NCBI GenBank assembly: GCA_052327205.1 | Contig: CM126203.1 | Location: forward strand, 272,118,001-272,182,000 | Direction of reading: 5' to 3' | DNA from: Somniosus microcephalus | Lineage: Eukaryota | Length of the DNA: 64,000 nt | Shown here: piece by piece, positions 438 through 63,665 of the stretch | How the letters are laid out: each line of letters opens with the position of its first letter | Numbering within the stretch: the stretch's first letter is position 1 | The notes under the pieces: model-generated | The model's database searches: none | What the model saw: the letters and a program-made list of their open reading frames with translations, nothing else | Told to the model about the DNA's origin: nothing | Position numbers and translations under genes: made by a program

Positions 438-3400
438 GTGAAATTGGAGCTTGGTTCTGGTGAAAAGATTCTTCGCTCTGAAAGAGGAGTGAAGCTAAAT
501 GATTTGGCATTGCACACATTGGAAATATACCATGAAGATGGTGAAGTTACCCTGACAGTCGACAAACACTTCATAACTAGTGTGAAGATGCCAGGATTGC
601 TTCATGAGCTGAACATTCAACATGGCATATTTGTAGGTGGTACTGGTGGGTTTGACAAATCTTATATGGAAGGGGCAGCGCGTAACTTCCGGGGATGCAT
701 TGACGAGGTGGTATTCAACCTGCATGACATTTTGTCATCTTTAAGAACATATTCTGGCTTTAAAAATGTACATGAGGTTTCAGCAGGCTGCAGTGATGAA
801 TTTTTTGCTGAAGATGGTGAGCCAATCAGTTTATTTAGTTCCAAATCTTATCTTGAATTTGCCTTGTGGAATGCACAAGAGGAGGCAGTGCTTGAATGTG
901 CTGTGCGCACCACTGAACCATTGGGTCTGCTGCTGTATAACGCTGGTCGACAAGGTGATTTTGTCGCTATGGAGATTGCGGAAGGATTAATTCGTGTAGT
1001 TATTGGAAAATCTGGAAGAAAAACACACCTTTCTTCCCTAAGTCATGTTAACGACAATAATTGGCATTACATTAAGCTGCGATTTACATCTAAACATCTC
1101 CATCTTACAGTGGACGAGGAGACTGTAAAGGTTACTCTGAGTTCTGGCAGCAAGAATCTTAAGTTGAGGGGCCCTCTGTTTGTTGGCGGTATAGATGACA
1201 GCACTCGCGTCGAAGTCTTGAAGATCGGTCTTCAATCCCTTGCAGGAAGAAAAGCAAGAGGAGGATCCTTCAGGGGTTGCCTAAAGGATGTGAAAGCTAA
1301 CTCAGGAAAAAAAAGCTTAAGGAACGTGCTAGTTACAAAAGACATTTCAGCTGGGTGCACAGCAGTGAAAAAAAGTTTCACAACTGTTAAAACAACTACA
1401 GCTCAAATGCTAGTTATTCCAACGACTTCTACTCCTCAGACGACAGTTAAACCCACAGCAAAGGCACAGACCAAGAAATTCCTAACTCTCAATAACCTAG
1501 TAGTTGCAGAAGGAGGGCAGACAGCACTAGAGTCTAAACACATAAAGTTAAACCTAGAGTTCAAGAAATTGGGAGTGCGCCAGTCACAAATAATATTCAA
1601 GATAACAAAGCGGCCAAACCATGGACATCTAAAATTGGACACTGGTCCAGAGAGTGAACCGAATTCTTTCACCATGTTGGACCTCTGGTATGGGAGAGTA
1701 TTGTATGTTCACGATGGATCTGAGTATTCCCATGATCAGTTCTCATTTTCTGTTTTTACAAGCAGTAAGAAAGTGGTCCCAGAATACCTGAAAGGAGACA
1801 AGCAGTATCTGTTTAACATTACTATTACTCCAACTAATGATGCTCCTGAAATTGTTCTTCCTGAAGGTAATTTGTTCATTTTGCTGGAGAATTCCAAGAA
1901 ATGTCTTGCAAGTAATGTGATTAAGGCTATTGATATTGACACAAATTCTACAGAGCTTCAGTTCTCCATTTTAGGTAACCTTAATGCAGATGCTGGATTT
2001 TTGGAAAATGCCATGAATCCTGGTACGGCTATAACTACATTCTCCAACACTGATTTGGAAGAAGGGAACATGTATTACGTTCACCAGGGTGTTCGTACCT
2101 CAAGGATTGTGTTACGTGTCAGTGATGGTGATAGAGTGAGCAACACTGTAGTTTTACGTATAATGGCTGTACCAGTGGATTATAAAGTGGTCAATAACAC
2201 AGGCCTAATAGTGGAACAGAGTGATACGGCCTTGATCACTAAATACAATTTGTCAGTTGAAACTAATGCAGTCAATCAGGAAGTAGAAATCCGTTATAAC
2301 ATCGCTAAAGCCCCAAAGTATGGTGAAATTCAACGGCTGCAATCTAGCGGCGAATGGAAGAAAATCAGTTCTTTTTCTCAACGGTCGGTGGAGCGGGGCC
2401 GCATCCGATACTTTGGCACTTTCCATGAACTTCAGTCTCCTAATGTAACTGAGATGTTCAAATTTAAAGTTAGTATAGGGAGGGAGACAAGTGAGGAGCT
2501 AGTTTTCCCCATCATAGTGAAATGGGTTCATTTCAAACTTCTGAAAAATACACCATTAGAGATTGATAAAGGGAAGAAACAAGCTCTAACTTCTGAAAAT
2601 CTCCATGCTGTGATGGAAGGTGCAAGAACCTCTGAAAGTGGGCTACACTATAGGTTGGTGACTGCACCTAAAAGAGGACAACTTCTGTTGGATGGCAAGA
2701 TCCTAAAACAAAATTCTTCTTTCAGTCAGAAAGATATATCTGCACAGAAGGTGGAATATGAACTAATTGGCAAACCTCATGAAGACATAGAGGATGTCTT
2801 CAGCTTTCAGCTTTTCTCCAAGCATGCAGTATCACTAATGCATAATTTCCATACACTTATTAAAGCTGATGTTAACTCCATTAATTTGACAAATAAAGGT
2901 CTCACCTTGGTTGAGGGAGATGGAGAATTAATAACTCAGGCAGAGTTATATGCAGAAACCTTGAACACTAAAAGGTTCTTGTACACTATTATGCAGAGTC
3001 CAAGATCTGGCAAGTTGAAGCGCATCAACCGCTCTGATTCAACTGACAGTAATGACAATATAACGACCTTCACTAATGAAGATATTATTGGACAACGTCT
3101 CATGTATGTGCATGACAATTCTGAGTCTACACATGATGAGTTTATATTTGTAGCTGCTGCTGGAGAGGCCACAGACAATTCAGAAGCAGACCCGAACTCT
3201 CTCTCTGTTTTGGGGACATTTGCCATAACTATTCAGCTAAAAAATGATGAGAAACCAGTTCGTGCTGTAGACAAAGTTTTTCATGTGGTTAGGAATGGTC
3301 AGCGGCTGCTGACCCTTGAAGATCTGCGCTATCATGATCCTGATTCGGACTTCAGTGACGCACAGTTATTGTACACTCGCCGTGGTATTCCAAACGGTGA

Positions 3401-3989
3401 CCTAGTTCTAGTAAATGACACCGCCAAAAAACTTTTCCAGTTCTCTCAGGAAGACCTTGAGCAGAAGCGAGTTCTGTTTGTGCATCGCGGTGCTGACACT
3501 GGCAGGTTTGTCTTGTTTGTAACTGATGGTAAACACTACACTTCTTCGTTACTGGAGGTCAGTGCCTCAGATGCTTATGTTCAAATAGCTAACAACACAG
3601 GGCTTCTGGTGCAGAAGGGACAAGAAGAGCCTCTAACAACAGCTAATTTCAGTGTTAATACAAACCTTTTTATTGCAGAGGAAAGTGAGATTAATTACAG
3701 AGTGTTTTTGTCACCGAAACATGGAGCACTCTATTTGAATGGTATGCGTACAGAATCTTTCACTCAGAATGATTTGAAGAATGGCCAAGTAGTGTATCGC
3801 CATGACAACAGCAACAATCTTGTGGACAAGTTCAATTTCACAATAAAGGTGAAGCATTTACTGCTGGATGGAGGGGTTAATGTTCGTATATACCTGGAAA
3901 GCCATCAGCGTGCTCCAAGAATTGTGCACAACAGCAATCTATTGGTTGAAGAAGGGAAGCCTGTGAAAATCAGCAAAAAAAATCTTCAG
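438..3989 (+). CDS. cspg4b: CSPG4-family gene, giant exon (two laminin G domains plus CSPG/cadherin-like repeats)
   Basis: 3552-nt stop-free exon, ttcttag acceptor and CAG|gtgaga donor. LamG motifs (NFRGCI, SFRGCL) and CSPG repeats (YVHDGSE, YVHDNSE, YRHDNS, PTNDAP). A giant third exon is characteristic of CSPG4 genes. Confidence 0.95.
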
Positions 3990-4136
3990 GTGAGATGGCT
4001 GCAAGATGTGAGTTTGTTCTTGAATATAAACTGTTATCTTCTTGGTTAACATTACTTGTCTGATTGTTTCCCGAATTGTTTTTCCAAATATCCCTTCAAA
4101 TTAAAGGAGTACTTTAGGGAATTGATCCAAAACACT

Positions 4137-5868: not shown

Positions 5869-6184
5869 AATCAGAATCACAGAATCACAGAATCTGCAGT
5901 GCAGATAGAGGCCATTTCGGCCCATCGAGCCTGCACCGACACACATCCCACCCCATCCCCGCAACCCCACGTATTTAATCCCCTAACACTAAGGGTCAAT
6001 TTATCACAGCCAAATCAACCTAACCTGCACATCTTTGGACTGTGGGAGGAAACCGGAGCACCCGGAGGAAACCCACGCAGACACAGGGAGAATGTGCAAA
6101 CTCCACACAGTCACCCGAGGCCGGATTCGAACCCGGGTCCCTGGCGCTGTGAGGCAACAGTGCTAACCACTATGCCACCGTGCC
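5869..6184 (-). mobile_element. HE1-type tRNA-derived V-SINE
   Basis: Minus strand: tRNA head GGCACGGTGGCATAGTGGTTAGCAC...GGTTCGAATCC (A and B boxes), V-domain TGTGTGGAGTTTGCACATTCTCCC...GGGTTTCCTCCGGGTGCTCCGG, CR1-like 3' end with (GATTCTGT)n tail. Confidence 0.85.
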
Positions 6185-11215: not shown

Positions 11216-12417
11216 GTGAGAGAACCTCATTAGCAGAATTAACCATGCAGTCTTTCTAATGGTACATTACCTTTGAGCGATATTGCTCATGGGATCCCTG
11301 GTTTTGGCAACAGTGCAGCGAGGTATATCAGACCTTTTGTAAATGCTGAAATCTACCTGAAGAAGTGGATTTCCCTGGGTATCTATAGCTAGCAGCAATG
11401 TAAGTGCAGGCTCTAATGGTATCAGCTGCCATTTGTTCCTGAAGTAAGTTGCCTGCTATGTATGAGCCAGCAATGCGATTTCAGAATGGCTGACCTGTAC
11501 TGGAATTCATCACCTAGTGGGGAAGGTCTCAAAGCCAGAAAATAAAGCCACAGATTGTGTGAAAAGTTGTTTGTTTCAACGGTGCTGTAGATTCTGCCTT
11601 GCATTTTAAGCAGGAAGAGTTTCACAGCACTGGGAGCCAAAGCCAATACACAGCTGCTGGTACTTGAGCAGCTCCCCAAGATAAATGCAACATAAATGGT
11701 AGAATTTCTTGTCTCAACTGTTGTTTTGTGAATGTCTAACTTCACTGCTGAGCTGATAGAGGTCAATTTGCAAGCTAAATTCTTCGCAATTTTCTGGTTC
11801 CTTGCTTCCAAGCGCATTAGTAGATTTAAAATGTAGTGCCTTGGAACTATAGAAACTTATAGCACAGGAGAATGCCAGTCATCTCATTGTATCTGTGCCA
11901 GAGCTTTGTTAGAGCAACCCAAAACTAATCCCACTGCCCTGCTCTCCCCACAGATCTGTATCTGCCTCTGCTTTGAATGTTTATCTGGTCTTCCCCTAAA
12001 AGAAGCAATGGGCTGCCTTAACTGCTCCGTGTAACACAGAATTCCACACTCTAACGATGCTCGGTGTAAAGACATTTCTCTCTCCTCACTATCCTAGTGA
12101 CAATTTTAAATGGATAACCCCTCAATACTGACTCCCCACCCAGAGGAAATAGTCTTTCCCCGCTTGTCTATGTACAATCAAAAAAATGGCAAGTGAATTT
12201 GTTTTTTTTGGCAATGGGGGTAAACTTTCTGCACCGGTATCCAGATCTCCCGCTTTGCGGGGGTTTCCGTTGAAGTTACAGCGGATGATCGGGAGAACAT
12301 CTGGGGAAATTCCAGGCATGGGCGTTTTTCCCTTTTTAAAATATGTCTATGTAAATATGTCGCTGATCTGGGCACTACATATTTCACCTCTGTATTGTGA
12401 TACCTTCTTTCTTTCAG

Positions 12418-12891
12418 GCCATGCATGAAGACAATCTACCATCCGAAATAATTTACAAAGTGAAAATTGCACCAGCTCATGGCTACATTCGTAGCTTTGC
12501 TGAAGCAGAAGGGTACTATGTTGGAACAGAACATAAACCAGTCCAGTACTTTACACAACAAGACCTAAATGATGGCAGCATTCAGTATGTGCAAGTGAGA
12601 GCAAATCAGATAAAGGACAGCTTTACTGTGGATATTACTAATGGAGTAGTAGAACTGTCTGGAATTCTAATCCAGATTGATATTATTCCAAGACTGATCC
12701 CACTGGAAGTACATAACTTTACAATCAAGGAAGGTTCATCTAAGGCATTGACAGAGGACTTTATAAAAGTTGCAAGTCCACACTTTGCTGAGCTTAATTT
12801 TGAATATTCAGTAATAGAAAAACCAAAACACGGACATATAGAGAACTCCCGTTTTCCTGATTTATCTCTCTTGTCATTTACTAGACAACAG
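12418..12891 (+). CDS. cspg4b: CSPG4-family exon (CSPG repeats)
   Basis: ctttcag acceptor and CAG|gtact donor; 474 nt, phase 0/0; AMHEDNLPSEIIY...FTQQDLNDGSIQYVQ...SFTRQQ. Confidence 0.92.
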
Positions 12892-13158
12892 GTACTGTGA
12901 AAATGTTTCATTTTTCTTGTCAATGTAGACTTTCCTGTGTACTTAATGATTTAATTTTGTTTTTCCCCATAAGATGTCTTTTGTCAGTCAAATGCATAAA
13001 TAAGACTATCTTGGCTACAATTCTAACTGAGAGCAATTCATCTCCTACTTGAAAGATGTAGGTTCTACTTATAGTTCAAATTCATATGACAAGTGAACAT
13101 TTTCAGAATCTGTGTATATTGGTAATAACACTGATTTTTATATCACTTCACCTTTTAG

Positions 13159-38241: not shown

Positions 38242-38457
38242 TGTTAGATCTGTGTATCTTGATGTTGTGTGTCCTTCAATAACTAGACACGAGACTGCAG
38301 GGAACAATCAACAGGTGTTTACTGGATGAGGGTTACTCTAAAACTAAACATACAGATCCCTACTCAGGGTTTATATACAGGTGTGGTCACTGCCGGTACT
38401 ACAGTATACAGGAGCTGTAAAAAGTAGTTCTCCCCTTATATAGGTACATACACTACA
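38242..38457 (-). repeat. 3' LTR (216 bp)
   Basis: Direct repeat of 43234-43447 with about 5 substitutions and a 2-bp indel by eye. Confidence 0.95.
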
Positions 38458-38545
38458 ATTCCTCCCCTTTTATAGATTAACAGTACCATAACATTCATTT
38501 AACAATTAACACTTTTAACATGCACATTAACTGAAAATAGTCCAT

Positions 38546-41500
38546 TTATAAATTCAGTCTTTGGGGCAGCTTCCTGATCCTTTCTGGATAGCGCTTTTCC
38601 TGAGTGTCTTGCTCTTGGTGCGGAGGCCCCCTGTCGTCAGTTGGCTCATCAGCTTCCGATGCTACTGTTTCTGGGGTAGATGCTACCTGTATGTCGGGTT
38701 CATCACCAGGTACGCGACACATGGGGTTGACTCGTTCCTGTGACTCTAGGATCTGGTCGACATGGCGTCTCACAATGTTCTCCCCAACATCCACTGTGTA
38801 CATTAGTGGCCCCTGCCGTGTGCATATCGTTCCAGGTTGCCATTTCTCTGTTCGGTAGTCGCGGGCCAAGACTGGTTGCCCTACATTGAAGCTCCTTGTC
38901 GGCTTCTCATTGATGTGCTGGAATTGCTTATTTTCAACATCCCTTCGTACATTTGGTCTGAGCAAATCCAGACGAGATCTCAACCTTCGGTTAAAGAACA
39001 TCATGGCCGGGGTCTGGTTGGTGACTGCATCTGTCGCATTTCTGTAAGCTAACAGGAAATTGTCCACCTTGTGCTGTAGTGGAATGTCGTCATCGCACAT
39101 GGCCCGTACTGCTTTTTTAAAGGTTTGTACGAACCTCTCAGCCAATCCATTTGTGGCTGGATGATACGGGGCGGATGTGTAATGCCTTACCCCATTCCTT
39201 TTCATGAATCTTCAAAACTCTTCGGACACAAACTGTGGTCCGTTATCAGAGCAAATCTGCTCTGGCAAGCTGTTCCTGGCAAATATGGTCCGTAGGACTG
39301 CAATAGTTTTCTCCGTGGTGGTGGACGACATTTTGATCACCTCAGGCCATTTCGAGTGCGCATCCACGGCTATTAAAAACATTGAGTCCATGAATGGACA
39401 AGCAAAATCAATATGCACCCTTTGCCATGGAGATGAGGGCCACTCCCATGGGTGTAGAGGGGCATGTGGTGGTGCATTTTGGACCTTCTGGCATCCTGAG
39501 CAGCTCTTTGTCAGGTCCTCAATTTGCTGATCGATCCCCGGCCACCACACATAAGCCCTAGCAAGGCTTTTCATCTTCACCCCTCCCAGATGGCCTTCGT
39601 GAAGCTCATTGAGCACTCTCTCCCTTAACTTGGGTGGAATTACCACTCGGGATCCACACATCAAGGTCCCCTGGCATACTGACAGCTGTTCTCTTCTGGA
39701 TGAGAATGCTGGCAACAGTGAGTTGCCATGTGTTGGCCATCCCTTCACCGTCCAGTTTTTACCCGAGACAGTGTCAGGTCATTTCGGGTCTCCTCTATAT
39801 CAGCGTTAGTTACTGGCAAGCGTTCAATTATAGTCGAATAAAATATTTCGACAGGGTCCACTGCTGGTGCTTCCTCCGCAGTAGGCAGTGGCAGGCGCGA
39901 TAGCCCATCAGCGTTTCCATGCTGTTTCGTGCCCTTATACTCGATTTCATATTGGTTCGCCCCTAGAAAAAGGGACCATCTTTGTAGCCGTTGCGCAGTC
40001 ATCACCGGAACGCCCTTCTTTGGATTAAAGATGGAGACAAGTGGTTGGTGGTCAGTCAGCAAGGTGAACTTCTGCCCGTGCAGATAGTGGTTGAACTTTT
40101 TCACTCCCCACACTAGGCTGAGGGCCTCCCTGTCAATCTGGGCGTAGTTACGCTCGGCTGAGGTTAGTGACCGAGACGCAAAGGCTACCGGCCTCTCCGA
40201 GCTGCCCGGGAACTTGTGCGACAGCACCGCTCCAATGCCATAGGGTGATGCATCACACGCCAACCGAATTGGTAGTGCTGGGTTGAAATGAGCCAACACC
40301 TCTTTTGATGTGATCAATTCTTTGCACTTCTGGAAAGCTCGCTTACATTCGTCATTCCACTTCCATGGTACCCCCGTTTGCAGTAGGGTGTTCAGTGGGT
40401 GTAGTACTGTAGACAAATTCAGCAAGAACTTATGGTAGTAGTTCACCAGCCCGTGGAACGACCTCAGTTGTGACGCATTTTCCGGTGCTGGAGCCTTGAC
40501 TACTGCCTCAATCTTTTCAGGGGACTTATGTAACCCCTCTTCATGAATAATGTGGCCACAATACGAGATCTGCTTCTGGAAAAACTCGCATTTGTGGCGA
40601 TTTGCTCGGAGCCCATATTCCTTCAATCTAGTGAGCACCTGCTCCAGGTTGGCAAGGTGATCACTGTCACTTTTGCCCGTGACCAGGATGTTGTCCAAAT
40701 AACACTGGGTCCCTGGAATCCCTTGCAGGACTTGATCCATTGCCCTTTGCCAAATAGACGGAGCTGATGCTACCCCGAACACCAGCCGATTGTGTTGGTA
40801 GAGACCTTTATGAGTGTTGATCGTGAGGTACTGTTTCGAGGCTTCTTCTACCTCCATTTGCAGGTACGCCTGGGCCAGATCAATCTTAGTGAAGCGTTTC
40901 CCTCCAGATAGCGAGGCGAAAATATCTTCAATCCGTGGAAGCGGATATTGTACCGTGTGAAGGACTGGGTTCACTGTCACCTTAACGTCCCCACAGATGC
41001 GAACCTTCTTTGGTTCCCCAGGCGTATTACTCAACGACCTCTTCATTACAGGAATGATGGGTGTAGCCCACTCGCTCCAGTCCACTTTGGACAGTACTCC
41101 TGAACGTTCCAAACCTTCCAGCTCTGCTTCGACGGCTGGGCGGATTGCATAAGGTCTGGCCTTAAAAAAAACTTTGGGCTTGCATTTTCCTCTATTTTGA
41201 TCGTCGCTGTTATGCCTTTTAGTGTTCCGAGTCCCTCCTGGAACACTTCTTGTGCGTCAGTTAGCATTTTTGACAGTCGTCCAGGTGTGACGTCGTCATC
41301 GTTTTTGGCATCTACAGTCAGTGCTTGTATGGAATGCCAATCTAGCTGTATCTTCCAGATCCATTCACGTCCTAGTAGTGGTGGTCCTCCATCTGGCAAT
41401 ACATATAGGTCCATTTTTGGTGTTTCCTTGCCGTTATATATAACGTTCATCCTTATTTTTCCTTTGGGGTAGACTTTTTGCCCCGTGTACGTCTTCAAGA

Positions 41501-42476
41501 CACTCTCTGTATCTCTCAAGGGTATATGTGAGAATAGCCGCTTGTAGTCCCTTCGGTTTATGACTGTTAGGGCTGATCCTGTGTCCAATTCCATTTTCAC
41601 TTGGACTCCAGCTATCTTGAGCGTGACCCAGATAGTTTGGTGATCCTCCGTTTTGATCACCTTATGTAGTTTCAGACAACCCAGCTCCTTGCTTCCGGAG
41701 TCTGTATCACTCTTCTGTTCGTCTGAACTACTCTCCGTCACCTTATGTACCTTCTTGTACTTCTCCTGTGGAGATTTCTTGCTGCTGGTTTTCTTTCCCG
41801 ACCTGTAGACTCTTGCTATGTGTCCTACTTTTCCACACTGTCTGCACACTTTGTCCTTGAACCAGCAATCATTATGGTCGTGTGTTGTTCTGCCGCAGCG
41901 ATAGCACTTCACTGTTCCGTATGACATTTCATTTGTGCCATATTCTTGCGGTCTCCGTTGTATCTCTGCAGCGCCCCGTGCGGCTGCTTCGTGTGATACT
42001 GCCATGCTGAAAGCCTTGTCCAGCGTAAGATCCTTTTCTGATAGAAGCCGTTTCTGGGTTCCTTCACTTTGAAGCCCACACACAAACTTGTCCCTTAAAG
42101 TATCTGCTAGTCCCGTTCCAAACTGGCAGTGTTTTGATAGCTTGCGCAGTTCCGTTAAATACTCAGCATTACTTTCATCTTTATGCTGGTTCCTTTTGTG
42201 AAACTTAAATCTTTCTGCTATCAGCAGCGGTGTGGGGTTTAATTGGTCCTGTAGGATTGACACTATGTTTCCAAAATCCTTTTCCACTGGCTTCTCTGGG
42301 GTTACTAGGTTTCGCAGTAAGCCATACGTTTTTGCACCCATTGAATTCAACAATACCAGCGCTTTCCTCTCATCTGGCACTTCATTCGCCTTGCAGTACA
42401 CTTCTATGCGTTCAACATATGTCGTCCAATGTTCGACTTCATTGTCGAACGCTGTGATACTGCCACTCTTCGGCAT
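38546..42476 (-). pseudogene. gag-pol polyprotein, frameshifted
   Basis: Four consecutive ORFs (41046-42476, 39745-41112, 39212-39748, 38546-39205); RT catalytic motif reads YLDN instead of YLDD; integrase HIDFA, SDNGPQF, TNGLAER. Confidence 0.93.
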
Positions 42477-42694
42477 CCCTGGGTGTGGTTAGACTGGCTC
42501 AAAATGGCGTTTTCCCACGCTCTCCCTTCTCCGCTGTGGCTCAAAATGGCATTTCCCGCGCTCTCCCTTCTCCGCTGCGGCTGCTCGGCCCTTGAACACC
42601 GGCTGCGCTCTGCACGTTTCCCTTTCTTCCCCACTGACGCTGCTCGTCCCTTGAACACCGGCTGCGCTCTGCGCGTTTTCCTTCGCGCCTCTCT

Positions 42695-42965
42695 CCTCCC
42701 GTCGACGCCATTCGGTCCTGAACACTGGCTGCGCCCTGTGCGCTCTACCCTCTCTCTTCTCCCGTCGATGCTGTTCGGTCCTGAACACCGGCTGCGCCCT
42801 GTGCGCTCTACCCTCTCTCTTCTCCCGTCAACGCCACTCGGTCCTGAACACCGGCTGCGCCCTGTGCGCTCTACCCTCTCTCTTCTCCCGTCGACGCCAC
42901 TCGGTCCTGAACACCGGCTGCGCCCTGTGCGCTCTACCCTCTCTCTTCTCCCGTCGACGCTGCTC
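42695..42965. repeat. 60-bp tandem repeat (~4.5 units) in the Gypsy leader
   Basis: Unit ccgtcgacgccactcggtcctgaacaccggctgcgccctgtgcgctctaccctctctcttct repeats with a 60-nt period. Confidence 0.9.
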
Positions 42966-43233
42966 GGCCTTTCCTATGCCGTCGGTCGGCTCTAGCCGCC
43001 GCTGTCCGGGAAGGGTCTGCGCCGCACCTGTTGCCAGCCCATTTCGCTGGAGAACCAAGCCCAGCTCTCAACAGCCTCCCCTGCGATGCTCAAATCTCCG
43101 CTGGATAACTGGGCGGTTGCTCGTGGTCGACGCCTGTGCTTCTGGCCTCGACCACCTTCCACTGTTCTCCAGGAGCGAATCCCTGGGAGGTGATGCAGAG
43201 TTGCAGGTAGGTTCGAATCTGCCTCGTCGCCAA

Positions 43234-43447
43234 TGTTAGATCCGTGTATCTTGATGTTATGTGTCCTTCAATAACTAGACACGAGACTGCAGGGAACAAT
43301 CAACAGGTGTTTACTGGATGAGGGTTACTCTAAAACGAAACATACAGATGCCTACTCAGGGTTTATATACAGGTGTGGTCACTGCCGGTACTACAGTATA
43401 CAGGAGCTGTAAAAAGTAGTTCTCCCCTTAAAGGTACATACACTACA
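43234..43447 (-). repeat. 5' LTR (214 bp)
   Basis: TGTAGTG...TCTAACA on the minus strand, followed by the PBS. Confidence 0.95.
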
Positions 43448-56590: not shown

Positions 56591-56892
56591 CGCCAACCCC
56601 CCCCCTCGAATTTTCTTAAACAAAGTCCATAAGCCTGTGAAAATGTCAGATTCTGGTTAACAACCCTGCGGAGGCTCCTCCCATCTTCCCGTATCCAGAT
56701 AATTACATCTTAGTGTTACCATGTACAATTAATTTGGCATGCTAAACTTCATTGCCCAGGCATGTACATCATGGAACTAACTTCATGCTGCACAGAATAA
56801 GTGCTAATGATCACAGGATGTGGCACAGCTGTCATGTAATGATGAGTCACTTGCCCTAACCATGAGGATCCACCTTTAAAGATAAAACTGCC

Positions 56893-57138
56893 TGTTAAGT
56901 CTGTGTGTTATATTGAGAATTACTACACAGACCACAAGAGTAAAATTTAACAGGTCTTCACTGGTTGAAGGTCAGGGCGGAACTGCCCAATAAATCCTTA
57001 CACAGCACTTATATACCGGTGTGGTCACCACCGGTATTACAGTATACAGCAGCCAAGATAAAGTAGTGCAACTCTTAAAATAGTTCTCTTAAAGGTGGAA
57101 CGGTTCTCTTAAAAGGTGGAACGGTTACATACACTACA
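56893..57138 (-). repeat. 3' LTR of the chimeric element (~246 bp)
   Basis: Starts TGTAGTGTATGTA like the sister LTR; shares the block tatac.ggtgtggtcac..ccggta.tacagtatacag; ends ...TTAACA; internal 20-21 bp tandem duplication at about 57083-57123. Confidence 0.85.
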
Positions 57139-57230
57139 ATCCTCCCTTTTTAGCTTAACAGTATATATTTCCCATTAAACATAACATCATAACATATATA
57201 CACAACTTCATGTAAGAACAGTTCACAGAT

Positions 57231-57850
57231 TCAGTCTCTGAGGCGGCGCCTCCTGACTCGGTCCGGATAACGCCTCGGTGGTGTAGTAGTTTTCGGTGGT
57301 GTAGTAGGTTTTCGTTGCTGGGGTGACTCATCTAATAGTCCTTCACTGGACTTAACAGCTTGAATTTTCGTAACTTCAGAACCAGCATTGTTGACTTCTA
57401 AAGGCTCGAGTACCTTGGGAAGTTTTTCTGCGTCCAGACTGATTTGGCTCAGTTCGGAGGGACCACGTGCGTGACCTGGTAGGGGTGATAATGGTTCAGA
57501 TGAGTCATCATCTTCATCATCCTGGGACAACTCACATGAATATACTAGATTGCTGTCCTCCTCAGTATCTACGTCCTCCAAATGTTTTATTATTTCTATT
57601 TTTGGAGCTTCAACTGTGAGTGTGGCTGTGGTCTGTGCATTACTTGATTTGCAGCTATATTCACCAGAGTCTTTGGGTATGAGATTTGTAATGGTAAGTT
57701 CTATCACATTCTTCTTTTGTTTAAATTTGTTTCGGTCAGAAGATTCGATTAAGCTCTGGTCTTTGTACCATCTGACCATCTTGGGAGTAGGTGTAAACTC
57801 ACAGCTCAAAGTAGCCGAATGCTTCTCTTCCCCTGTAATGTTCTGTAGTT
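57231..57850 (-). CDS. Chimeric ORF, part 2: rest of titin-like Ig, STK10-like linker, Gypsy C-terminal tail
   Basis: In frame with part 1 once the CR1 is removed: KVVKE|LQNITGEEKHSATLSCEFTPTPKMVRWY...DSGEYSC...; stop at 57231-57233. Confidence 0.88.
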
Positions 57851-60800
57851 ACATAGATACATAGATACATAGAAGATAGGAGCAGGAGTAGGCCATTCGG
57901 CCCTTCGTGCCTGCTCCGCCATTCGATGAGATCATGGCTGATCCTTTAATTCAGTATCCCGTCCCCGCCTTCTCTCCGTAACCCTTAACCCCTTTTGCCC
58001 GTAGAAATATATCTAATTCCCTCTTAAATATATTTAATGAGCTGGCGTACACTGCCCTCTGTGGCAATGAGTTCCACAGGTTCACCACTCTCCGAGTGAA
58101 GAAATTCCCCCTCATCTCTGTCCTAAATGGTTTAGCCCTTATCCTTAAATTATGTCCTCTAGTTCTGTTCTCACCCGCCAAGGGAAACATTCCTTCTGCA
58201 TCCAGTCTGTCTAGACCTGTCAGAATTTTATACACTTCTATGAGGTCCCCTCTCAATCTTCTAAACTCCAGTGTGTACATCCCTAAACTACATAGTCTCT
58301 CCTCATAGGTCATTCCCGCCATTCCTGGTATCAGCCTGGTGAATCGCCGCTGCACCCCCTCCATGGCAAGAACATCCTTCCTCAGATGAGGCGACCAAAA
58401 CTGTACACAGTACTCGAGGTGTGGTCTCACCAGTGCCCTGTACAGCTGCAGCAAGGTATCCCTGTTCCTGTATTCTAACCCTTTTGCTATGAAGGCCAGC
58501 ATACCGTTTGCCTTCTTGACCGCCTGTTGCACCTGCATGCTCGCCTTCAGTGACTGGTGTACAAGAACACCCAGGTCTCTCTGTACTTCCCCCTCTCCCA
58601 ATCTATTGCCATTTAAATAATAATTTGCCCTCCCGTTCCTGCACCCAAGGTGGATAACTTCGCACTTGTCCACATTATAGTGCATCTGCCATTTATCCGC
58701 CCAATCGCCCAGTCTGTCCAAATCGCTCTGGAGCTTCCTGGTCTCTTCCTCTGAGCCCACCCCCCCTCCTAGTTTAGTGTCGTCTGCAAATTTGGAAATG
58801 CTGCATCCGACTCCCTGATCCAGGTCATTAATGTAAATTGTGAACAGCTGGGGGCCCAGGACAGATCCCTGTGGTACCCCACTTGTTACTGCCTGCCATT
58901 CAGAAAATGAGCCGTTTATTCCAACTCTCTGTTTTCTATCTGACAGCCAGTTCCCTATCCACGCCAAAACTTTCCCCTTTATCCCATGAGCCTCAATTTT
59001 CCATGCTAATCTTTTATGTGGGACCTTATCGAAGGCCTTTTGGAAGTCCAGGTACACCACATCTACTGGCTCTCCCCCATCTATTCTACCAGTTACTCCC
59101 TCAAAAAATTCCAATAGATTAGTCAAGCACGATTTACCCTTTGTAAATCCATGTTGACTCTGTCCTATCCTGTCCCCATTTGCTAAGTGCTCCGCTATTT
59201 CATCCTTAATGATGGACTCCAGCATTTTGCCCACAACTGATGTAAGGCTTACAGGTCTGTAATTACCTGCTTTTTCCCTACCCCCCTTTTTGAATAGTGG
59301 GGTAACGTTAGCTACCCTCCAATCCATCGGCACTGTTCCCGAGTCTAATGAATTCTGAAAAATCATCCTTAGTGCATCCGCTATCTCTAGGGCCACCTCC
59401 TTCAGTACCCTAGGATGCATGTTATCAGGCCCTGGGGATTTGTCCACCTTCAATCCCTTTAGCTTCCTTAACACCATATCCTTAGAGATATTGATTTGCG
59501 TCAGTTCCTCCTTTGCCAATGTCCCTATTTTTCCCGATATCCCAGGGAGGTTTTTTGTGTCTTCCTTCGTAAAGACTGACCCAAAGTATGCATTTAGTTG
59601 ATCTGCCATTTCCTTATTTCCCATTATATATTCCCCCGTATCTGACTGCAATGGACCAACTTTGGTTTTCACCAGTCTTTTCCTTTTGATATATTTATAA
59701 AAGCTTTTGGAGTTAGTTTTTATATTTTCCGCCAGCTTGTTTTCGTAAGCTATTTTGCCCCTCTTGATCATGCCCTTTGCCCTCCTTTGCTCTATCTTAA
59801 ACTGTTCCCAATCTTCCGCTCTGGCGCTTTTTTTGGCTATTTTATACGCCCTATCTTTGGATTTTATGCTGTCTCTAATTTCCCCTGTTATCCACGGTTG
59901 AGTCACCTTTTTAGATTTCCTTTTATGCCAGATTGGTATAAACAATTTTTGCAATTTTGTCATTCTATCTTTAAATGTTTGCCATTGTTTATCTACCTCC
60001 AGTCCTCCCAGGAACGTTGTCCAATCAGACCTACTCAGTTCCCGTCTCATGGCATCATAATTCCCCTTGTTTAAATTCAGGACCTTAGTCTCTGAGTCAA
60101 TTTCTTCGCTCTCCATTTCGAGTGAGAAATCGATCATGTTATGATCGCTCTGACCCAAGGGTCCCCGTACAACAAGATTACTGATTAGTCCCTTCTCATT
60201 GCACAGTACCCAGTCCAATATAGCCTGTTCCCGAGTTGGTTCCTCGACATATTGATCCAGATAACCATCCCTTAAACACTCAAGGAATTCCTCCTCCTCA
60301 TTATTTTTACTGATTAGGCTAGTCCAATCTATATGTAAGTTAAAGTCACCTATGATGACAGCTGTGCTCTTATTGCACGCTTCTCTAATTTCCCTCGTGA
60401 TGCCCTCCCTAACCTCTATTTTACTATTTGGAGGCCTATATACCACTCCTATTAATGTTTTTCGCCCCTCGCTATTTCTTAGCTCCACCCATATAGATTC
60501 TGTATTAACTGAGTTAATATCCTTCTTTTCAATTGCATTTATCCCCTCTTTTACTAGCAATGCTACCCCTCCTCCCTTTCTTTTTTGTCGATCCTTCCTA
60601 AATACTGAATACCCCTGTATGTTAAGCTCCCAGCCCTGCTCACCCTGCAACCATGTTTCCGTAATCCCAATTAGATCATAATTATTAACCTCTATTTCCA
60701 CAGCTAATTCATCTACCTTGTTCCTGATGCTTCTCGCATTAAGGTATAAAACCCTCAGGCTTTTTTTATGCTCACATTTTTTATGAATTAGTTTGGCCCT

Positions 60801-61216
60801 TTGTTTTTTGTTCCTCACCCTTTTACCATTTATTTCTGTCTGCCTTTCACTTTCCTCTATTTCACTACATAGGTTTCTAGCCCCCTGCCATACTAGTTTA
60901 AATGCTCCCGAACTGCTTTATCAAAAATTACCCCGAGAACATCAGTTCCATCTCTGCACAGGTGTAGACCGTCCCTTTTGTATAGGTCACACCTACCACA
61001 AAACTGGTTCCAATGCCTCAAAAATTTAAAACCCTCCCTCTTACACCACTGCTCAAGCCACGTATTTAGCCTAACTATCCTGTTCTCTGTACTCTTACTA
61101 GCACGTGGCACTGGTAGTAATCCAGAGATTACTACCTTCGAGGTCCTACTTTTTAGCTTGGCTCCTAACTCCCTAAATTCTACTTGTAGGACCTCTTCCC
61201 TTTTTTTAGCTACGTC
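57851..61216 (-). mobile_element. Young CR1 LINE, truncated within ORF1, ORF2 intact
   Basis: (TATGTATC)n tail at 57851; flanked by a 3-bp direct repeat (gtt at 57848-57850 and 61217-61219). Confidence 0.96.
57951..60818 (-). CDS. CR1 ORF2: APE endonuclease and reverse transcriptase (955 aa, uninterrupted)
   Basis: YLNARSI, GITETWL, IGDFN, SDHN; [27 protein letters not shown]; no stops. Confidence 0.95.
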   Translation of the reverse strand: MRNKKQRAKLIHKKCEHKKSLRVLYLNARSIRNKVDELAVEIEVNNYDLIGITETWLQGEQGWELNIQGYSVFRKDRQKRKGGGVALLVKEGINAIEKKDINSVNTESIWVELRNSEGRKTLIGVVYRPPNSKIEVREGITREIREACNKSTAVIIGDFNLHIDWTSLISKNNEEEEFLECLRDGYLDQYVEEPTREQAILDWVLCNEKGLISNLVVRGPLGQSDHNMIDFSLEMESEEIDSETKVLNLNKGNYDAMRRELSRSDWTTFLGGLEVDKQWQTFKDRMTKLQKLFIPIWHKRKSKKVTQPWITGEIRDSIKSKDRAYKIAKKSARAEDWEQFKIEQRRAKGMIKRGKIAYENKLAENIKTNSKSFYKYIKRKRLVKTKVGPLQSDTGEYIMGNKEMADQLNAYFGSVFTKEDTKNLPGISGKIGTLAKEELTQINISKDMVLRKLKGLKVDKSPGPDNMHPRVLKEVALEIADALRMIFQNSLDSGTVPMDWRVANVTPLFKKGGREKAGNYRPVSLTSVVGKMLESIIKDEIAEHLANGDRIGQSQHGFTKGKSCLTNLLEFFEGVTGRIDGGEPVDVVYLDFQKAFDKVPHKRLAWKIEAHGIKGKVLAWIGNWLSDRKQRVGINGSFSEWQAVTSGVPQGSVLGPQLFTIYINDLDQGVGCSISKFADDTKLGGGVGSEEETRKLQSDLDRLGDWADKWQMHYNVDKCEVIHLGCRNGRANYYLNGNRLGEGEVQRDLGVLVHQSLKASMQVQQAVKKANGMLAFIAKGLEYRNRDTLLQLYRALVRPHLEYCVQFWSPHLRKDVLAMEGVQRRFTRLIPGMAGMTYEERLCSLGMYTLEFRRLRGDLIEVYKILTGLDRLDAEGMFPLAGENRTRGHNLRIRAKPFRTEMRGNFFTRRVVNLWNSLPQRAVYASSLNIFKRELDIFLRAKGVKGYGEKAGTGY

Positions 61217-63665
61217 GTTCTTTGACTACCTTTGACGGAGGCTCTTTAATAGTCAGCCTCGCCTTAGATTTTGATTTCCCTGCAATAAACTGCAGCAAGC
61301 CGGTCATCTTAGAAATTGTTTTTTTCAGAGTGAGACGATGAATAGTGCCACAATGCTCAATGTCCACATCTTCAGAAGCATGAAGAATTTCACCATTTAG
61401 TATCCATTTTGGAGGCTTCACGTCAGCAACTGAAAGCTCACACTCAAGAATGGCGTCACTTGGCTCTGTCACTTCCACATCACATATGGGTTTAATGATG
61501 GCAATTGATTGCTCTTCTACATATAACTTTGCTGTGCTTTGGTCATCTATGGCGTCGCACATGTAGTTGCCTTCATCTTCAAAAGCGACATTATTAATAA
61601 CGAGCTTCCTGTACACATCTTCACTCACAATCTCATATTTATTACTGGGATGAATCTCTTTGTCTTTGTAATACCACTTGACAGCATTTGGCCTGGAAAC
61701 CTTGCATTCGAAAATGACACGATGTTTTTCCATGCCAATCTTCTCTCTTAAGGGTTTCACAATTTTAACTGGCAATTCTTTAATTCGAAGCAAAGCTCTG
61801 GAAGTAGCGCTTTCAGCAACAAACTTGATCTCTGCAGCATCTTCAGTCTTTGCCTCTGCCACCAATTCCCTGAGTGGCTTATTACTACTGACACTGCTCA
61901 CAAAAGTGTGCTCTTTCTTCTTAGCTTTCAACTGATCGATGAATTTGACATATTCCCTTTCTTGCTCAGCTTTGATTCGTTTGGCCTCATCGCGCAGACG
62001 GTTTGTGTGTTCCTGTTCCATTTTCTCAATCAGCTGCTTCTGTTGTCTTTCCAGATTCTCCCACTCTGTGTCAAAGAACTTTTTCTTTGCATTCATCTCT
62101 TGCTCAAAACGGCGAATCATTTGTTCTAATTGCTGTTGTAGTTTGAAATTGAGTTGAATTCGAGCCCGGTGTTCCTCAGAAATGTGCATGTCTGTAGACT
62201 GGACAGACTCAGAATTCTCTGTCAAACTATGTTGTTGCTGTTCAGTGGAATTCTGTTCTGATACTTTGTTCTCTCCTGAAGCATTTATACACTCCTTCGT
62301 TTTTCCATCATTAGTCTGCAAGTCCATTTTAGACTTGTCTTTTGCACATGGGCTGGTCTTACCATCATCAGTTCCAGGGTCTGAGCTGATTGTCTTCACC
62401 GAGTTCTCACTCTCTGCTTTGTCACTGTCACTGCTGCATATGCCCTCATCCAATATTCTGGACAATCGTGCAGGTTTGACATCTTTTCTTTTTCCGGAAT
62501 CGCCCGTTATTGCTTTTAGGGGGTGCCAGTCCATATTTATTTTCCTGATCCACTCCCGTCCCAGAAGTGGTGGACCTCCCTCAGGTAGTACATATATGTC
62601 CATTCCTTGGTGTTCTTTGCCCTTATGTACCACCTTGACTTTTATCCTTCCGATGGGGTATACTCTTTGCCCCGTGTATATCTTTAATACTATCTCCGTA
62701 TCCCGTAGGGGAATATGTGTGAATAACCTTTTGTAATCTTGCTTATTCATGACCGTCAACGCCGATCCGGTGTCCAATTCCATCTTCACTTGGACTCCTG
62801 CTATCTGCAGGGTGACCCAGATAGTTTGTCGGTCAGCTTCCTTACTCACATTGTGAATTCTCAGACTACCCAGTTCCTTGCTGTTGGAGTCTGAATCCGA
62901 ATTCTGTTCATCCGAACTCTTCTCAGCCACCTTGTGTACCTTGCTGCACTTTTCCTGTGGTGACTTTTTGTTGCTGGTCTTCTTTCCTGACCGGCATACT
63001 TTAGCTATGTGACCAAGCTTGCCACATTTTCTACATTCCTGGTTTTTAAACCAGCATTGGTTCTGATCGTGTGTTGTCTTCCCACAACGATAACATTTCG
63101 TTGTACCCAAAGCCATTTGATCTACGCTGAGTACCGCTGCCTTCAGCTGCATTTCCGCAGTGCCTCTCGCTGCGGCTTTGTGCGATGCTGCAATAGAGAC
63201 AGCCTTATCAAGTGTAAGATCATTCTCTTCAAGTAGCCGCTTTTGTGTTCCTTCTTTCGACAATCCGCACACGAATTTGTCTCTCAGTGCCTCTGTCAGT
63301 CCTTCCCCAAACTGACAGTATTTCGCTAGCTTACGCAGTTCAATTAAGTACTCCGCGTTGCTTTCCTCTTTCAGTTGCGTTCTCGCATAAAATTTAAATC
63401 GTTCCGCTAACATCAGCGGTGTGGGGTTCAACTGATCCTTCAGGACAGCAACAATATTAGCGAAAGTCTGATCCGCCGGTTTAGCTGGTGATAGAAGATG
63501 CTTCAATAGCCCGTATGTCTTCGCACCCATTGAGTTTAGTAAGGTTAATGCTTTATCTTCATTTGATATTTTATTTGCCTTACAATATATCTCTATGCGT
63601 TCTACATACGTGGCCCAATCTTCAACATCGGGATCGAAATCGTTGATGTTACCACGCTTAGGCAT
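61217..63665 (-). CDS. Chimeric ORF, part 1: Gag-protease fused to STK10-like linker and coiled coil and titin-like Ig domains
   Basis: ATG at 63665 (MPKRGNI, compare sister MPKSGSI); two CCHC knuckles; ELDTGSA; then EEHRAR...AKKKFFDTE...[25 protein letters not shown] and I-set Ig repeats; cut by the CR1 at 61216. Confidence 0.88.

Follow-up and report, generated by a model that had tools for sequence, protein, structure and literature searches.

A spliced obscurin segment nested in the STK10 cargo of a non-autonomous gypsy-type long terminal repeat element of the shark Somniosus microcephalus

Structure of the element and parentage of its cargos

We analysed a window of 64,000 nucleotides (nt) from the 6.4 Gb genome of Somniosus microcephalus (G000:C2:272118001-272182000; contigs of this assembly are given below as C numbers and fetched loci as L numbers). 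On its minus strand lies a gypsy-type long terminal repeat (LTR) element in which gag and protease are followed by cargo of host origin and then by an integrase tail. The cargo consists of STK10 sequence, within which an array of immunoglobulin (Ig) repeats is nested. Our interpretation, which we hold to be very probable, is that a spliced five-exon piece of obscurin stands in place of 35 nt of STK10 sequence within this non-autonomous element, and was likely copied in once by two template switches. The features of the element, in window coordinates, are as follows.

56888..56892, no strand: target-site duplication of 5 bp, its twin lying outside the window after the 5′ LTR (G000:C2:272182456-272182701)
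56893..57138, minus: 3′ LTR, TG...CA, 246 nt, from comparison of the LTR pair
57139..57151, minus: polypurine tract (PPT), the same word as in a pol-bearing relative
57231..57326, minus: integrase-tail remnant in frame with the cargo, the tail TTPPRRYPDRV being common to the pol-bearing relative
57327..57515, minus: STK10 cargo, 3′ part, with the end of the back-spliced exon and the start of the next; 57509-57515 is a 7-nt word shared with obscurin (alignment)
57509..57607, minus: obscurin exon E, first 99 nt (C5:24727901-24727999; this and the following obscurin rows from exon alignment)
57608..57850, minus: obscurin exon D, 3′ part (C5:24726026-24726268)
57851..61213, minus: CR1 long interspersed nuclear element (LINE) of 3,363 nt, a later insertion with a 988-codon endonuclease–reverse transcriptase (RT) frame and a 3-6 nt duplication, from open reading frame (ORF) and copy comparison
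61214..61243, minus: obscurin exon D, 5′ part
61244..61513, minus: obscurin exon C, whole (C5:24724556-24724825)
61514..61777, minus: obscurin exon B, whole except for a 3-nt deletion private to the window copy (C5:24716102-24716368)
61778..61851, minus: obscurin exon A, last 74 nt (C5:24714905-24714978); 61841-61851 is an 11-nt word shared with STK10
61841..62458, minus: STK10 cargo, 5′ part, with part of a large exon, a 414-nt in-frame deletion at about 62175, two later exons and the back-splice at 61910/61911 (alignment)
62459..63665, minus: gypsy-type gag and aspartyl protease without RT, RNase H or integrase core, from ORFs and domains

The element is classed as non-autonomous and gypsy-type in that gag–protease is retained, RT and integrase are lost, and the primer-binding site (PBS) and PPT are common to a pol-bearing relative; the PBS word of the window element matches three of four copies of that relative, and the PPT all four. 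Its 5′ LTR, just outside the window, differs from the 3′ LTR at one of 247 aligned letters. An arginine run (57231-57260) ends the frame in obscurin copies and most deletion-type copies, and the end of long STK10-only copies resembles that of integrase in pol-bearing elements. The CR1 that interrupts the Ig array is present in one of the 62 obscurin-type copies examined, that of the window, where it terminates the fused frame after 819 codons. The first-pass annotation had assigned 57513..61847 to the Ig array; an obscurin array does lie there, but positions 57851-61213 of that span are the CR1, which it left unmentioned.

The Ig cargo comprises 977 nt and matches five exons of one host locus (C5:24.70 Mb) at 97–98%. 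The exon portions (74, 267, 270, 267 and 99 nt) are spread across 13.1 kb of the locus, and its four introns, all GT-AG, are missing from the cargo at 4/4 junctions. The crossing of four exon junctions without introns supports capture at the RNA level, as the first-pass annotation had proposed; the piece maps neither within a single exon nor together with intron sequence. The motifs of I-set type that it named were located on the minus strand, and its estimate of about 320 intronless codons with three complete and two partial repeats agrees with our count (~325 codons, three whole and two partial exons). We located the parent locus with an uncaptured neighbouring part of a catshark protein, since the cargo or P0120 as genome query gave element copies only, and read the locus across ~140 kb. 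Its exons are colinear with turtle obscurin (P0001, residues 361-1347), and exons further upstream match chimaera obscurin b at 73–79% as against at most 43% for OBSL1-named proteins. The Ig piece itself is 58–63% alike to named obscurins and at most about 50% to OBSL1. In a search of proteins up to 2000 amino acids, the titin name was absent among the best 120 of 131 matches, the named ones being obscurin or OBSL1.

The parent of the Ig array is obscurin, which had been mentioned as an alternative to titin, and not titin itself. Titin parentage was rejected on the DNA match to the obscurin locus, the single titin-named match being 28% alike and titin pieces in the PDB weakly alike, within the same limit on protein length and with the titin locus not fetched. 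No back-splice was found in the obscurin piece, whose five exons stand in gene order; nothing in it points to a circular donor, though one is conceivable, and the earlier argument from the circular RNAs of titin loses its footing with this colinear order. Nor is a muscle transcript needed as donor, since organs other than muscle are reported to contain obscurins in rodents (PMC3916441), although the accessible part of that report leaves testis and ovary unmentioned. A literature search for obscurin in testis yielded nothing.

The STK10 cargo is made up of five exons from C8:167.19-167.20 Mb in rotated order. The cargo sets out within the large exon, runs to the donor at C8:167191933, continues through an exact back-splice from the upstream acceptor at 167198433 and returns to its starting point, its two ends overlapping by 14 nt. 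Protein matches for STK10 were best with sharks. An exact back-splice is given as the defining mark of copies derived from circular RNA in the accessible part of one report (PMC4897178), and to judge from its exon order the STK10 cargo likely derived from circular STK10 RNA. Elsewhere in the genome, an intronless stretch of STK10 residues 753-977, 97% alike and adjoining CR1, lies at L049:4272-4946 (G000:C3:354658271-354658945) and is probably a 3′ processed pseudogene of the usual kind. An STK10/SLK-like kinase stretch (85%) is found inside an 823-codon open frame at G000:C8:2305443-2305640.

At the junctions, STK10-only copies read AAAAGCTGAAG, then 35 nt, then GAAGATG, and the obscurin piece starts with AAAAACTGAAG and ends with GAAGATG. 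The 5′ join word, AAAA(G/A)CTGAAG, is shared at 10 of 11 nt and the 3′ word over 7 nt; at a random switch point, an exact run of at least six letters has P = 0.002 and one of at least seven P = 0.0007. Replacement of the 35 nt gives a net gain of 924 nt, in frame. The insert had been placed in frame between LVAEAK and EDDDSSEP as near neighbours in STK10, and these are 14 residues apart in shark STK10 (P0121), the shared words of STK10-only copies being separated by the 35 nt. Microhomology at both joins was also correctly noticed, but the 3′ word then given, GATGATGAA, is slightly off the true one. Both obscurin ends fall mid-exon on these words, and the marks of a LINE-type processed pseudogene (3′ poly(A), target duplication round the obscurin piece) were not found. 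The insert is read in obscurin's own frame, the remaining two frames carrying 38 and 21 stops.

Copies, intermediates and a third cargo

A genome-wide search with exact junction patterns found the obscurin-type junction at 293 sites and intact STK10 at 581, with none for reversed-pattern controls; both counts are lower bounds, and one of the 581 should be the STK10 gene itself. For the wider family, 150 of 16,569 candidates from a PKK domain search were scored. Sequences were taken for 40 obscurin-type and 20 STK10-only sites, following genome order along C1-C2, and for 26 more picked by score; the set of 58 copies used below is the 62 obscurin copies minus four duplicated insertions. Elements with STK10 cargo and no Ig insert, for which the first-pass annotation had recommended a search, are therefore abundant, and together with the back-splice in the STK10 cargo these intermediates bear out the nested order that it proposed, STK10 before the Ig piece. 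Six of the 20 STK10-only copies in genome order have a long cargo and 14 carry the 414-nt in-frame deletion, and the exon lost in this deletion is present in none of the 62 obscurin copies. LTR pairs were present in 35 of 40 obscurin copies, with 89 differences in 8,385 letters (about 1.1%); the divergence is 1.0% in deletion copies (14 pairs) and 1.6% in long copies (6 pairs). An exact 5-bp target duplication was seen in 24 of 31 copies.

Seven differences from the host obscurin gene are each found in at least 80% of the 58 copies, while host messenger RNA (mRNA) reads of run X24 carry host letters at those sites, so that the obscurin piece was captured once. Five derived STK10 letters are common to long, deletion-type and obscurin copies, and therefore all descend from one STK10 capture. 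Several further derived letters are limited to deletion-type and obscurin copies and lie on both sides of the insert. Long STK10-only copies are 0.95% from the STK10 gene. The 414-nt deletion would have preceded the obscurin capture.

A third piece, of KMT2A type, was found in 18 of 40 obscurin copies (three being duplicates of one insertion and one partial) and in 2 of 14 deletion-type copies, with 164 candidates in the genome. It comprises 481 nt, 98.8% alike to part of one large exon behind a FYRN domain (parent C26:7610598-7611078); at L087:2455-2935 (G000:C1:239294554-239295034), for example, it stands in frame and takes the place of the end of the protease and of 68 nt of STK10. An RNA origin of this piece cannot be shown, because its parent is a single exon. 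It carries the two Taspase1 sites given for MLL in the accessible part of one source (PMC3343046).

Some copies have moved or been interrupted in other ways. Flanks and target duplication are identical in L079, L080, L081 and L083 (C1:60.5, 64.1, 76.6 and 108.7 Mb), which represent a single insertion amplified together with the neighbouring DNA, perhaps as part of a bigger mobile or duplicated unit. L016 (C36) and L018 (C32) have a flank in common. A short repeat of 340-365 nt was separately inserted in three obscurin copies (L031:5217-5582 in element-oriented coordinates, L094 and L104) and is also found at window 5872-6179. Elsewhere in the window, a second gypsy-type element (38242-43430) has a broken gag-pol and LTRs 98% alike, and its gag–protease is 71–75% like that of the cargo element. 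Large exons at 438-4049 and 12367-12900 encode laminin G and cadherin-like repeats, and we take them to be CSPG4-like.

Reading frame, selection and RNA

Changes relative to the host obscurin exons were sorted by how widely they are shared. Private changes comprise 68 silent, 158 replacement and 7 stops; those shared by two to four copies, 17, 47 and 1; and those shared by at least five copies, 7, 19 and 0. The ratio of replacement to silent rates (dN/dS) of the obscurin cargo, over private and lineage-shared changes, is 0.9–1.1 at kappa 4 and 0.7–0.8 at kappa 1. Amino-acid change in the cargo appears neutral and the Ig protein unselected. Over the whole frame, indel events shared by at least two copies are in frame in 8 of 10 cases and private ones in 16 of 54 (Fisher P = 0.004; artefacts at the KMT2A junction were collapsed before the count), and both shared frameshifts sit in simple runs. 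Retention of the frame of the element is moderately supported by these counts, with further caveats: two of the eight in-frame shared events may be one, a null of ~45% in frame leaves P near 0.03–0.05 (by hand), and the frame reads through in just 10 of 40 copies. Seemingly shared frameshifts, and with them a stop, near ORF position 1160-1182 were rejected as alignment artefacts at the KMT2A-type junction and collapsed to one +354 event. A stop in nine copies was likewise rejected as a lineage stop, the CGA-to-TGA change being scattered across branches and present in one STK10-only copy. None of 79 public protein matches (580-1847 amino acids, best candidates) has both PKK and Ig domains.

At each of the seven diagnostic sites in the Ig piece, the reads of RNA run X23 (24% read) show the element letter, with no host-type letter among 2–16 reads per site; they are mainly sense, some antisense. 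In run X24 (31% read), host letters predominate over the Ig piece (for example 93/104 and 106/127), and 36 and 52 reads continue into adjacent obscurin exons. The obscurin subfamily thus appears to be present in RNA at low depth, although DNA carry-over or read-through from host introns may account for the reads, and organism B may be another species. Contigs of X4 and X5 cross junctions by fewer than 31 letters and were not counted as bridging. At L028:5171, the end of obscurin exon D, 14 X24 reads pass into the host intron, which marks them as unspliced or retained.

Explanations and known systems

Serial capture by template switching is the likely course of events. Circular STK10 RNA would have replaced pol, with one full turn plus 14 nt, and the 414-nt in-frame deletion would have come next. 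Obscurin RNA packaged with element RNA may then have been joined by two RT template switches, once, to give the nested cargo. The obscurin-bearing element has reached about 300 sites, likely through the RT and integrase of a pol-bearing relative, and segments would have been exchanged with sister subfamilies; the element itself likely requires just a frame open to its 3′ end. Retrotransposition in the germline is required, because the copies are inherited. On sequence grounds, a candidate helper is found in a young family with pol (3,046 candidates, best 40 at 99%).

Several observations weigh against this account. The closest pol-bearing relative found is 84% alike in gag–protease and 81% in the LTR (four copies). 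Coding sequences share words in one frame ~45% of the time, which weakens the argument from the frame of the insert. In the same copies the STK10 parts are further from their parent (751/25,635 letters, 2.93%) than the obscurin part (709/30,296, 2.34%), the comparison that the first-pass annotation had suggested for ordering the captures; the difference is in the direction expected if STK10 came first, but it is slight, and the copies are not independent of one another. The gag–protease tree (79 rows, leaving out L126 as too short, L082, L091 and L109 as lacking the region, and the duplicated insertions L018, L080, L081 and L083) gives no order of events: obscurin and deletion-type copies are mixed, with eight label changes of which at least four are forced, and 0 of 200 bootstrap trees have a single obscurin label change. 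We infer that the mixture reflects recombination after one capture, because one junction and seven differences are shared despite the mixed tree and because the KMT2A-type cargo occurs in both obscurin and deletion-type copies, but this step is itself inferential.

The mixed tree would also suit acquisition of STK10 and obscurin in one copying round with four switches, the STK10-only copies being sister products or later losses, and two-gene captures with several switch points are known in flies from the accessible part of one study (PMC5131818). However, STK10-only copies retain the 35 nt, and 6 of 20 retain the 414 nt as well; the five derived letters that they share with obscurin copies trace all to one STK10 capture, and the letters confined to deletion-type and obscurin copies flank the insert on both sides. 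A single round is largely refuted and we regard it as highly improbable. A less remote but still unlikely course is that a different RT, for instance from the numerous CR1 elements, made complementary DNA of obscurin, and that this mended a broken genomic copy of the STK10 element by way of the same shared words before that copy spread. This would yield an identical spliced, microhomology-bounded product; a CR1 with an open RT frame is present, and DNA-break repair by reverse-transcribed spliced mRNA is the topic of a published title (PMC4516963). Yet at least three host pieces have entered this one family, each in place of element sequence, a pattern that fits recurrent switching while the element itself is copied, and neither poly(A) nor a duplication is seen at the piece ends.

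It is also conceivable that a Gag–protease–STK10–obscurin fusion was retained for a benefit that its Ig or coiled-coil domains confer on particle or host. The open frame in a quarter of the copies and the element-type RNA reads across the Ig piece fit such a role, and the seven founder differences (four silent, three replacements) are too few to judge. Against it stand the dN/dS near 1 and the continued spread of lineages with 327 or 360 nt of the Ig piece deleted (13/58 and 2/58 copies), and we give a fusion function very little credence. Serial capture by template switching thus remains our preferred explanation. We put forward more tentatively, as an idea that could well prove wrong, that the family may act as a running recorder of the RNAs present where shark germline retrotransposition occurs, with circular and linear host RNAs nested, cargos recombined between subfamilies and spread limited to copies translatable to the 3′ end, the filter being the reading frame and not protein function.

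In this family the serial, nested uptake of RNA by a vertebrate LTR element is documented with unusual completeness, both parents, both junctions, two precursor stages and ~300 descendants being present in one genome. Switch-point homology, cargo recombination and frame retention, for which the case commonly rests on isolated examples, can be counted directly in such a record. There is also a warning here for annotation, as hundreds of young copies attract STK10, obscurin and KMT2A reads and gene models. Neither a new mechanism nor a new functional gene is shown. Our literature searches, to which most subscription papers, Repbase and Dfam were beyond reach, found no paper on this shark element.

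Known systems provide close parallels, as far as the accessible parts of the respective papers go. Mouse pseudogenes derived from circRFWD2 (PMC4897178) resemble the STK10 cargo in comprising dozens of back-splice copies flanked by LTR-element sequence, but they are not described as having a second gene nested within, and the obscurin piece of the shark element lacks a back-splice. Tan et al. (2016; PMC5131818) described LTR-mediated retrocopies of animals, including two-gene chimeras and further non-autonomous rounds, and cite maize Bs1. As in those retrocopies, a partial spliced mRNA replaces internal ORF sequence, short words mark the switches (median 6 bp there), and a two-gene chimera underwent later rounds as a non-autonomous element; the shark element likewise has precisely removed introns, words at both switches, an internal replacement, both LTRs and a target duplication. 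It differs in that the second capture fell inside the first cargo and not between element and gene, in its ~300 copies as against few sites, in the survival of precursor stages and in the one long frame kept. Bs1, as described there, likewise combines an LTR element with fragments from three host genes that are unlinked; the shark case, unlike Bs1, is from a vertebrate, has a back-spliced first cargo and retains intermediates in the same genome. The capture mechanism was therefore already known from the retrocopies of Tan et al. and from Bs1, and what is new here is the nesting, the copy number and the preserved stages.

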